A stretch of DNA of 64,000 nucleotides from Candidatus Levyibacteriota bacterium (GTDB lineage Bacteria; Patescibacteriota; Microgenomatia; Levybacterales; UBA12049): assembly GCA_016182185.1 (NCBI GenBank), contig JACOXU010000002.1:22874-86873 (forward strand), written 5' to 3'. The first letter of the stretch is position 1, and every line of letters begins with the position of its first letter. The notes beneath the pieces were generated by a model. It saw only the letters and a list, made by a program, of their open reading frames with translations. It made no database searches and had not been told where the DNA came from. A program made the position numbers and the translations under genes. Positions 22,346-23,841 of the stretch are shown in pieces.

Positions 22346-22528
22346 ATGAAAGGGAAGAATAATAAACAGTTCATAATCATTGTTTCTATTTTATTTTTAC
22401 TGACTATTGTTTTTTTATATCTTGCCCGAGGTAAAATTTTGCAGACAAAATCCACTAAAAAGCTCCAGATGATAAATACTTATTCGCAGGGAGACCATCC
22501 TGTTCCCAAACTGAATGAAAAACCTTAA
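22346..22528 (+). CDS. Small membrane protein, hypothetical
   Basis: 60 aa with one TM helix; stop overlaps the pilin-like gene start (TAATG). Confidence 0.3.
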   Translation: MKGKNNKQFIIIVSILFLLTIVFLYLARGKILQTKSTKKLQMINTYSQGDHPVPKLNEKP

Positions 22529-23841
22529 TGAAGCGTAATGGCTTTACATTAATTGAGCTTCTAGTTGTAATCGCAATAATATCAGTAATTGCCGCTTTGG
22601 CATTGGTAATTGTCAACCCCTTTAGGAACATTAGGCTCTCAAGAGACACGGTCAGAAAGCATGACGTGAGTCTTATTGCAAGGGAGCTTGAATCATATCT
22701 TATTAATAATGAAGTTTATCCTGAGGATTTAGATGTTTTGACTCAAGAGAAAGTAAGGGTGCCCAGCGATCCGCTTTATCCTAAATATATCTATGTGTAT
22801 AGTGCTGATAACACCAAAAACCCTCCGGAATATACGCTTTGTGCATATCTTGAAACCGAAGAAGAGGTCTTTTGCAATGAATCAGGTAAACAAACAACCC
22901 TTCTTGCTTTAGATGATCCTTCCATCCCAGACCCAGGGCCCGTTTCCTCTGAAGGCCCGACACCGACCCCTGTTGAAAACTGGATAGCCTGTGCAGGCGA
23001 AGGACAAGTTTGCTCATTTACTGGAACCAAGACAGTCCGTTATGGGGCAAATGGCTCTTTTGCCTATGGAACATTTACAGATGGCGTTGCCTGCAGTAAT
23101 AGTGTTTTTGGAGATCCTGCATGGGGATTTTCCAAGAAGTGCTATTTTGATGTCGGCGCAACTATCTCTTTCAATGCCGGTAGTCCTGAAGTAGTTCCGG
23201 TAATATTTCTTGCCAGCGACTCTGATGTCGGTGACGTAAATGTATATAGAGCACAGGTTAATTCAAGTTTTGATACAGTCAGAACTTGGTATTCAGGGCA
23301 ATTGGGAGGCAAAACATTTAATCTTGCTCCTGCCATTATGTTAAGAAGCAGCAAAACAGAAGCAGAACTTCATACATTATATGGTAATGGTGGAGGAATT
23401 TGGTACGAGGGAGTGAGGCAGACGACTGTGGCAAATGGAATGCATCCCTGTGATCCCAATCGTGACTACTATTTTGTTACACCTATGGATAATATTTGGG
23501 GAGGCATGGTGGGATCAGAAAACTTAGGTTGTTCTTTTGTTCTGCCGGGAACCCAATCGATCCCAAGTCATATGGGCAGAATGCTAGGAGGGATTGTTGA
23601 ACCTTGGGGTGAGTGGTGGGCAGATGAAATAAGGGAAGCACAAGGTGGTGTTGCCCACGAGCTTGGTCACGGCTTCGGAGGAGAATGTACGAATGGCAAT
23701 ATTTATCCCGGAGGAGACTGCAATGGACTTCCCCATTCTTCCTCACCATCAATCATGTATGCGTGGTGGGATTTTGGTACGACTGGAGTATTTTTTGACT
23801 ATGAAAAAACAAAAATCCTCCAAAGCCCCTTTATCCGTTAG
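22528..23841 (+). CDS. Type IV pilin-like protein (prepilin N-methylation motif) with a C-terminal metzincin-like zinc-peptidase domain
   Basis: N-terminal 'KRNGFTLIELLVVIAIISVIAA' class III signal/pilin helix; Pro/Thr linker 'PDPGPVSSEGPTPTPV'; C-terminal 'VAHELGHGFGGE' (HExxHxxGxxE) followed about 30 aa later by the Met-turn-like 'SPSIMYAWW'. Confidence 0.6.
   Translation: MKRNGFTLIELLVVIAIISVIAALALVIVNPFRNIRLSRDTVRKHDVSLIARELESYLINNEVYPEDLDVLTQEKVRVPSDPLYPKYIYVYSADNTKNPPEYTLCAYLETEEEVFCNESGKQTTLLALDDPSIPDPGPVSSEGPTPTPVENWIACAGEGQVCSFTGTKTVRYGANGSFAYGTFTDGVACSNSVFGDPAWGFSKKCYFDVGATISFNAGSPEVVPVIFLASDSDVGDVNVYRAQVNSSFDTVRTWYSGQLGGKTFNLAPAIMLRSSKTEAELHTLYGNGGGIWYEGVRQTTVANGMHPCDPNRDYYFVTPMDNIWGGMVGSENLGCSFVLPGTQSIPSHMGRMLGGIVEPWGEWWADEIREAQGGVAHELGHGFGGECTNGNIYPGGDCNGLPHSSSPSIMYAWWDFGTTGVFFDYEKTKILQSPFIR

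Follow-up and report, generated by a model that had tools for sequence, protein, structure and literature searches.

The 64-kb stretch of DNA analysed here (the window; contig JACOXU010000002.1 of a Candidatus Levyibacteriota bacterium) encodes a protein in which a type IV pilin module, a flexible linker, a small four-Cys module and a metzincin-type zinc metallopeptidase domain follow one another in a single chain. M1 is the only possible start of this pilin–metzincin gene, because an in-frame stop lies three codons 5' of the ATG, and its product is identical to P0001, which NCBI names 'MAG: type II secretion system protein [Candidatus Levybacteria bacterium]' (MAG, metagenome-assembled genome). 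We consider it probable that the protein is a modular type IV pilin, most likely a minor one, with a glycan-targeted metzincin protease that it exposes on the pilus or cell surface. The modules of the protein, the residues of its zinc site and two further genes of the window are located in Table 1.

Table 1. Positions in the window of the pilin–metzincin gene, its modules and active-site elements, and two further genes.
Feature	Positions	Strand	Remarks
Whole gene: modular type IV pilin with lectin-like module and metzincin domain	22528..23841	+	437 amino acids (aa) plus stop; from the list of open reading frames (ORFs)
Predicted class III leader peptide MKRNG (residues 1-5)	22528..22542	+	Cleavage expected after G5; read from sequence
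Pilin module (residues 1 to ~128)	22528..22911	+	Long alpha1 helix, four-stranded beta-sheet, Cys105-Cys116 pair
Pro/Thr/Ser-rich flexible linker (residues ~129-150)	22912..22977	+	Read from sequence
56-residue four-Cys beta-rich module (residues 152-207; C155, C162, C189, C205)	22981..23148	+	Candidate lectin or carbohydrate-binding module
Metzincin-type zinc metallopeptidase catalytic domain (residues 216-437; 222 aa)	23173..23838	+	
Active-site helix motif H377-E378-L-G-H381-G-F-G384	23656..23679	+	Two Zn ligands, catalytic Glu and conserved Gly
Subfamily-specific insert bounded by Cys387 and Cys398, predicted disulfide loop	23686..23721	+	Between G384 and the third His
H403, inferred third zinc ligand	23734..23736	+	Invariant A5 column, aligned with the His of 'FGLPH'
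S408-I409-M410, Met-turn	23749..23757	+	Conservation of M410
Small ORF, 60 aa, one transmembrane (TM) helix	22346..22528	+	Stop overlaps the start of the pilin gene (TAATG)
DsbA/Thioredoxin_4 protein with N-terminal extension of ~110 residues	43897..44751	-	Pfam scan

A preliminary description of this DNA, made from its letters, had read the N-terminus as a prepilin cleavage and methylation helix, and profile searches agreed. The segment MKRNGFTLIELLVVIAIISVIAA (residues 1–23) was recognised by Pfam N_methyl (PF07963; E=1.9e-8, score 34 bits, threshold 21.2, residues 2–26) and by TIGR02532 (E=9.4e-9, 34.8 bits against a cut-off of 16.3, residues 2–26). Within the prepilin signal, MKRNG followed by FTLIELLVVIAIISVIAALALVIV, F6 would be mature residue +1 and E10 mature residue +5, as in class III signals. 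The full-length AlphaFold2 model (pLDDT, the predicted local distance difference test, 76.6 overall and ~70–89 in the pilin module) places an alpha1 helix of 54 residues at 8–61 and strands at 89–94, 101–107, 113–118 and 124–127, and the Cys105/Cys116 pair of the module is conserved. Foldseek with the pilin module found Thermus thermophilus PilA4 (6xxd, TMt 0.53), in keeping with a lollipop fold, and phmmer matched the module to Geobacter pilin and GspG structures.

Residues 1–135 alone retrieved 166 proteins at E<=1e-5. Nearly all of the matches listed were stand-alone pilins of 117–175 aa (35–48% identity, 80–97% query coverage), and the named sources among them were Patescibacteria: Woesebacteria, Wirthbacteria and Saccharimonadales. 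One of the top matches, P0181 (118 aa, 46% identity), is encoded in a type IV pilus (T4P) cluster together with PilM, six tandem N_methyl genes, an A24 prepilin peptidase, PilC (T2SSF), a PilT-like ATPase and a PilB with an MshEN domain. Because the complete module resembles pilins from such a cluster, its sequence identifies it as a full pilin, of a family handled by T4P machinery, and as more than a signal peptide.

The linker that follows, DDPSIPDPGPVSSEGPTPTPVE, is the Pro/Thr stretch that the preliminary description had pointed out. It was modelled with pLDDT <50 at residues 136–149, and its length and composition vary between homologues in A1, an alignment of the protein with 18 homologues. 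The ten Cys residues of the chain are distributed in even numbers inside modules, as expected for within-module pairing in an extracytoplasmic disulfide-bonded protein. The succession of pilin, linker, four-Cys module and metzincin domain is that of a modular pilin; the earlier layout of pilin, linker and C-terminal domain was right as far as it went and had overlooked the 56-aa four-Cys module at residues 152–207.

The metzincin domain extends to the last residue of the protein. Pfam and NCBIfam scans of the C-terminal half gave nothing significant, and no Pfam M8 or M12 model was significant on the protein itself; homology was therefore reached through a family profile and structure. A hidden Markov model of the close subfamily (profile A2), compared with 1.84 billion cluster representatives, retrieved 175 proteins at E<=1e-3. 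At the active site, the distant members share the consensus AHELGHxFGLPHP...M, that is, the canonical HExxHxxGxxH plus a Met-turn. When 121 of these distant members were compared with Pfam, they matched Reprolysin_5 (28/121), PF12044 (Metallopep; 24/121), Reprolysin_4 (20/121), Reprolysin_3 and M66 (18/121 each) and M10 (13/121). Against the PDB, A2 reached Amuc_1438 at a non-significant level (E ~1.4), and significance came with the addition of the distant members (profile A5, close plus distant): Amuc_1438 was then matched at E=2.4e-11 and OgpA at E=7.6e-9, spanning nearly the whole N-terminal subdomain and the active site, followed by ADAM33 at 2.5e-5 and by MMP-14, fragilysin and MMP-1 in the range 1e-5 to 1e-3. 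These profile matches indicate that the protein is homologous to the catalytic domain of the OgpA/Amuc_1438 family, and the zincin fold anticipated in the preliminary description is borne out by the match of A5 to solved metzincins.

An AlphaFold model of the C-terminal domain alone (pLDDT 93; predicted template modelling score, pTM, 0.91) agreed with this assignment. Its predicted order of elements is beta1, helix A, beta2, helix B, beta3, beta4, beta5, an active-site helix at 367–383, the Met-turn and a C-terminal helix at 424–431, which fits the topology of metzincin catalytic domains and the fold of clan MA(M). By sequence and predicted fold, the C-terminal 222 aa are a metzincin zinc peptidase. 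The family delineated in this way is uncatalogued; it forms a branch of the OgpA-like metzincins, rich in Patescibacteria, for which ~175 cluster representatives lie at E<1e-3.

The zinc site departs in one respect from its first reading. The motif HExxHxxG at residues 377–384, within VAHELGHGFGGE (residues 375–386; full-protein numbering, which is C-domain numbering + 214), is the only occurrence of this motif in a long ORF of the window, and it aligned to AHELGHSFG of Amuc_1438. Where the preliminary description had proposed HExxHxxGxxE, the HExxH core and the Gly are real and conserved, and E386 as the third zinc ligand was rejected, position 386 varying among E, S, T, Y and M. Because position 386 varies and H403 is invariant, we infer that H403 is the third ligand, displaced by the Cys387..Cys398 insert. 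The 'FGLPH' motif aligns to the third-His region of Amuc_1438, in which the third His is H233 (PMC9513282). The Cys387..Cys398 loop amounts to a 16-residue insertion between the Gly and 'LPH' that is missing from the wider family (HELGHxFGLPHP), and the zinc consensus HExxHxxGxxH is found here by homology, not as a contiguous string. SPSIMY (residues 406–411) had correctly been taken for the Met-turn: M410 is unchanged throughout A1 and reaches at least 90% conservation in A3 and A5. It lies 7 residues past H403; in OgpA, M231 lies 16 residues past H215 (PMC7518263).

Conservation at this site is stronger than anywhere else in the family. The invariant columns of A5 are F264, G373, H377, E378, H381 and H403. 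In A1, conservation is complete or at least 90% at H377, E378, H381, G384, H403 and M410, and the close subfamily is invariant at G384, C387, C398 and M410. The metal-binding site, H-E-H...H plus the Met of the Met-turn, thus appears intact and is made up of those residues that the family conserves best.

Between the linker and the protease lies the four-Cys module, for which no Pfam or NCBIfam model matched residues 152–207 and no Pfam Gal_Lectin match was obtained. A profile built from 23 copies of the module (A4) has the consensus WxxCAxExxxCxFxGTxxVRYGANG...CxNxVFGDPxxGxxKxC. The module recurs, often in tandem, in unrelated secreted proteins (seen across P0019 and P0021–P0030): S8 peptidases (P0023–25), a GH26 protein (P0027), a DUF1996 protein (P0022), beta-helix proteins (P0021, P0026) and a protein with five repeats (P0019). 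Compared with the PDB, A4 matched the SUEL/L-rhamnose-binding lectins 5h4s (E=1e-10 for the whole sequence, from three partial matches) and CSL3 (E=8e-6), which suggests a lectin-like role, a motif match of this kind not establishing homology to SUEL lectins. The module is a second uncatalogued family and a candidate unclassified lectin or carbohydrate-binding family. In the sister proteins P0005 and P0006, the same slot holds a ConA-like lectin, Laminin_G_3 (E=4e-27 and 2e-32), and in P0007, P0008 and L008 a linker alone separates pilin and protease. Because the sisters hold a lectin or a linker alone in the middle, the conserved core is pilin plus metzincin with interchangeable spacers, which are probably carbohydrate-binding.

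Where a taxon was given, the close subfamily was found only in Patescibacteria (Levybacteria, Curtissbacteria, 'Patescibacteria group' and Saccharibacteria); a scan of GTDB genomes with A2, using strict back-translated patterns, gave three loci, and the taxonomic range is to be read as a lower bound. Pilin fusions account for nine 90%-identity clusters (P0001–P0008 and P0020) plus L008, with differing middle modules. A further architecture is that of P0036 (1425 aa; L009, 2395..6672) from a Saccharibacteria MAG, in which PG_binding_1 and about a dozen Cys-containing immunoglobulin-like (Ig-like) repeats, the latter forming a stalk of 1200 aa, precede a C-terminal metzincin. Throughout, the metzincin domain stands at the extreme C-terminus, whether after a pilin, after a TM anchor and spacer or after the Ig-repeat stalk, and the theme that runs through these sequences is a protease at the far end of a surface tether.

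The gene is flanked by murI–murD on one side and trpS–ftsH on the other, and the order MurI-MurD-(small ORF)-gene-TrpRS-FtsH is conserved in orthologues (L006, 78%; L004/L005, 67%; L008, 74% C-domain identity). Base composition at the gene is unremarkable and uniform; together with the conserved synteny, this led us to reject an origin by mobile element or recent transfer. The 60-aa small ORF upstream recurs at the same position in three orthologous loci, L006 (59 aa) and L004/L005 (with a TTG start), whose small ORFs carry a tail related to its C-terminal 'PVP..N.KP'. It may be translationally coupled to the pilin–metzincin gene and may encode a partner, chaperone or inhibitor; its membership in the system is uncertain. 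The DsbA-like gene of the window fits with disulfides being formed outside the cytoplasm, as the ten-Cys pilin–protease would require.

Modular pilins were defined as a class in 2021. Raynaud et al. (2021) catalogued >1,200 examples in 264 architectures, many of them from Patescibacteria and including predicted S74 and M26 peptidase modules (PMC8179133). The combination of pilin and zinc peptidase, which the preliminary description had called unusual, is real, and the description needs tempering in that pilins with predicted peptidase modules had already been catalogued. S74 and M26 are the only peptidases of that survey; the metzincin family described here is without a Pfam or InterPro signature, and a domain-based survey could therefore not see it. 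The closest comparators are Streptococcus sanguinis PilB and PilC, whose grafted modules are a vWA module and a ConA-like lectin, respectively (PMC8179133, PMC9934059). As in other modular pilins, our protein combines a class III signal and a small but complete pilin module with a C-terminal module grafted on through a short flexible linker, and the likeness to PilC extends to the ConA-like lectin (PF13385) of its relatives P0005 and P0006. It differs from PilB and PilC in that its cargo is a predicted enzyme rather than an adhesin and is preceded by a second small module, and whereas S. sanguinis pilB and pilC lie in the pil operon, the pilin–metzincin gene does not.

The closest characterised enzymes are two O-glycopeptidases of Akkermansia muciniphila, OgpA (Amuc_1119; 6Z2O/6Z2P; PMC7518263) and Amuc_1438 (8DEK/8DF2; PMC9513282), with 16–21% identity to the protein. 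O-glycopeptidases of this type cut strictly on the N-terminal side of O-glycosylated Ser/Thr. Both are secreted by way of a Sec signal, whereas the metzincin here is part of a pilin, and both lack its 16-residue Cys-Cys insert between G384 and the third His. With the adamalysins/ADAMs (M12B) the domain shares a five-stranded sheet, a three-helix topology and a C-terminal helix; unlike M8 and M12B metzincins, it has no recognisable pro-domain or cysteine switch. In leishmanolysin (M8), the third zinc His is set off from HExxHxxG by an insertion of ~60 residues. The zinc motif here is likewise interrupted, but by 16 residues that are predicted to be bracketed by a disulfide. On the side of export, the Sulfolobus bindosome (PMC4471445) is alike in that a prepilin-type signal puts a functional non-structural protein on the surface in a manner dependent on a type IV filament system; it differs in being archaeal, in involving substrate-binding proteins rather than enzymes and in that its proteins have no full pilin head, which is present here.

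In the literature searched, we found no report of a pilin–metzincin fusion and no experimentally characterised enzyme-bearing pilin, an absence that is not proof that none exists, and pilin–peptidase architectures have so far been database observations only (PMC8179133). New here is that the cargo is a metzincin from the OgpA/Amuc_1438 superfamily, that its zinc motif is interrupted and its family undetected by domain databases, and that pilin, lectin-like module and protease form a three-module arrangement. Also new is the occurrence of a pilin–metzincin in a lineage whose cultivated Saccharibacteria are reported to use pili to drive episymbiosis (PMC11623550).

Taken as a modular pilin, the protein would act as follows. 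Its class III signal would direct Sec-dependent membrane insertion; prepilin peptidase would then, to judge from the motif, cut after Gly5 and methylate Phe+1, and the mature protein would be held in the membrane via its hydrophobic alpha1N helix. T4P machinery would build it into the filament at low abundance. Its likeliest place, judging from S. sanguinis PilB and PilC, would be the filament tip, since a C-terminal cargo of 30 kDa would not fit into the packing of the filament body. Such placement would present the protease at a distance from the cell, or at any rate on its surface, where the lectin-like module could aid docking on glycosylated targets and the Zn site (H377, H381 and H403, with E378 as general base and M410 under the metal) could cut partner-cell surface proteins or glycoproteins, or environmental substrates. 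The motif, the complete predicted pilin fold, the relatives in a T4P cluster and the precedent of PilB and PilC argue for processing and incorporation into a pilus; conservation and homology argue for catalysis. Display at the tip and attack on a host or prey surface, as the preliminary description had imagined, are plausible possibilities. A bolder version, in which some Patescibacteria would carry an active lectin-guided metzincin at the T4P tip, cut host or prey glycoproteins or the S-layer as the pilus extends and pull the symbiont on as it retracts, we regard as doubtful. The 60-aa upstream membrane protein could be a dedicated partner or inhibitor of such an enzymatic pilus.

Several observations weigh against a glycan-targeted protease on a pilus. 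In the close paralogues P0009–P0018, a simple TM anchor at the N-terminus and a spacer of low complexity precede the same metzincin domain, and surface anchoring alone may be the property under selection. The neighbourhood of the gene is one of housekeeping functions, not a pilus operon, and neither T4P machinery nor a second pilin gene was found in the window by motif scans (regular expressions for T2SE Walker boxes, the A24 motif and further pilin motifs) and by Pfam on 20 large ORFs; the same scans of the window found no secretion ATPase, platform protein or prepilin peptidase. T4P machinery, if present, would be encoded elsewhere in the genome; minor and accessory pilins are commonly encoded away from the machinery genes. 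As for the substrate, OgpA and Amuc_1438 have a beta-sandwich domain as the opposite wall of their substrate groove; the protein here lacks it, ending 27 residues past the Met-turn, and the glycan contacts of OgpA (Y116, F166, K198, W199, N235 and Y236) are not evidently conserved. By helix register, rather than by a residue-level structural alignment, OgpA K198/W199 would correspond to E370/A371, and a conserved WW (413–414) past the Met-turn stands at the place of OgpA N235/Y236. The lectin match of the four-Cys module is limited to the 21-residue 'SNxVFGDPxxGxxK' motif (profile positions 33–53): SUEL domains have ~95 residues, eight Cys and YGR, DPC and KYL motifs, whereas the module has 56 residues and four Cys, and only the C-terminal motif aligns. 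Glycoprotein specificity, which is suggested by the nearest relatives, OgpA and Amuc_1438, and by the lectin-type spacers, is speculative because the beta-sandwich is absent and the glycan contacts are not evidently conserved.

Some of these observations would suit a membrane-anchored or pseudopilus-level ectoprotease, which would use the class III signal for export, processing and anchoring only and would never enter a long pilus, acting at the surface or being shed by cleavage of the linker. Although rather unlikely in our judgement, this account has real weight, because the domain occurs in TM-anchored paralogues and the gene lies outside a pilus operon, and non-filament proteins with class III signals are known, namely the sugar-binding proteins of the Sulfolobus bindosome (PMC4471445). 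It fits poorly with a complete pilin module of ~125 residues that has E+5, a beta-sheet head and a Cys pair, with a pilin part 35–48% identical to stand-alone pilins, of which the one examined (P0181) belongs to a T4P cluster, and with the retention of the pilin fusion in nine or more clusters at 90% identity whose middle modules differ. A catalytically dead metzincin fold, kept for binding or adhesion only, appears very improbable. Characterised modular pilins have adhesion as their shared theme (PMC8179133), and one pilin-fused relative, P0020 (382 aa), keeps the scaffold without the ligands, with QH for HE, F for the third His and the rest of the domain conserved; P0020 has probably lost its activity and become a pseudo-protease pilin. 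In our protein, however, H377, E378, H381, G384, H403 and M410 are intact, as they are in all but one of 18 close homologues, and the same residues are the most conserved columns over >120 distant relatives, the pattern expected of an active enzyme. Because the catalytic residues are the best conserved over so many divergent sequences, the domain is far more likely to be an active enzyme than a dead fold kept for binding, and the inactive binding domain that the preliminary description had offered as an alternative is disfavoured for this protein, one relative, P0020, having lost the ligands. The database names ('type II secretion system protein' at both NCBI and JGI) and weak partial matches to TIGR01710 GspG and TIGR01708 GspH would point to a pseudopilin of a type II secretion system (T2SS), GspG- or GspH-like, an identity that we consider extremely improbable and rejected, the scores lying far under their cut-offs. 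GspG scored 31.6 bits against 88.85 (model positions 2–80 of 134) and GspH 26.9 against 80, both matches being essentially confined to the shared N-terminal helix; the related pilin cluster around P0181 has PilM, PilT and MshEN-PilB, which are T4P features, and no secretin or other T2SS gene was seen. To our knowledge, Patescibacteria have no outer membrane for a T2SS to cross. Because membership in GspG fails, the name 'type II secretion system protein' is to be taken as generic.

A modular pilin carrying an active metzincin would extend the known roles of T4P, which are adhesion, motility, DNA uptake and secretion, to enzyme delivery by a catalytic pilus subunit. If this holds, it would amount to an 'enzymatic pilus', a function so far undemonstrated for any type IV filament. 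The protease module escapes Pfam and InterPro yet is clearly an intact metzincin by its residues, related to glycoprotein-cleaving enzymes, and the locus offers a concrete, clonable candidate for asking whether pili can bring catalytic activity to a partner cell. It also bears on how ultrasmall symbionts breach host envelopes.

Some other genes of the window deserve mention. Between trpS and ftsH, a 244-aa ORF without recognisable family (24882..25616, + strand) runs into the TTG that is listed as the start of ftsH; it is missing from the syntenic loci L004 and L006 and looks like a lineage-specific insertion. A 790-aa ORF (14367..16739, + strand) matches in position and length the 792–793-aa DUF8128/DUF87/TrwB-like (coupling-protein-like) ATPase of L004 and L006, and a XerC-type integrase (17620..18480, - strand) adjoins it. 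Farther along, an ATP-dependent DNA ligase of the archaeal/eukaryotic type has all three domains (37847..39589, + strand), with a gene for a Fic-domain protein just 5' of it (36544..37617, + strand). Two tandem overlapping genes (56457..60201, + strand) encode proteins of 609 and 640 aa, each with a GH130 mannooligosaccharide-phosphorylase domain after a long N-terminal extension.

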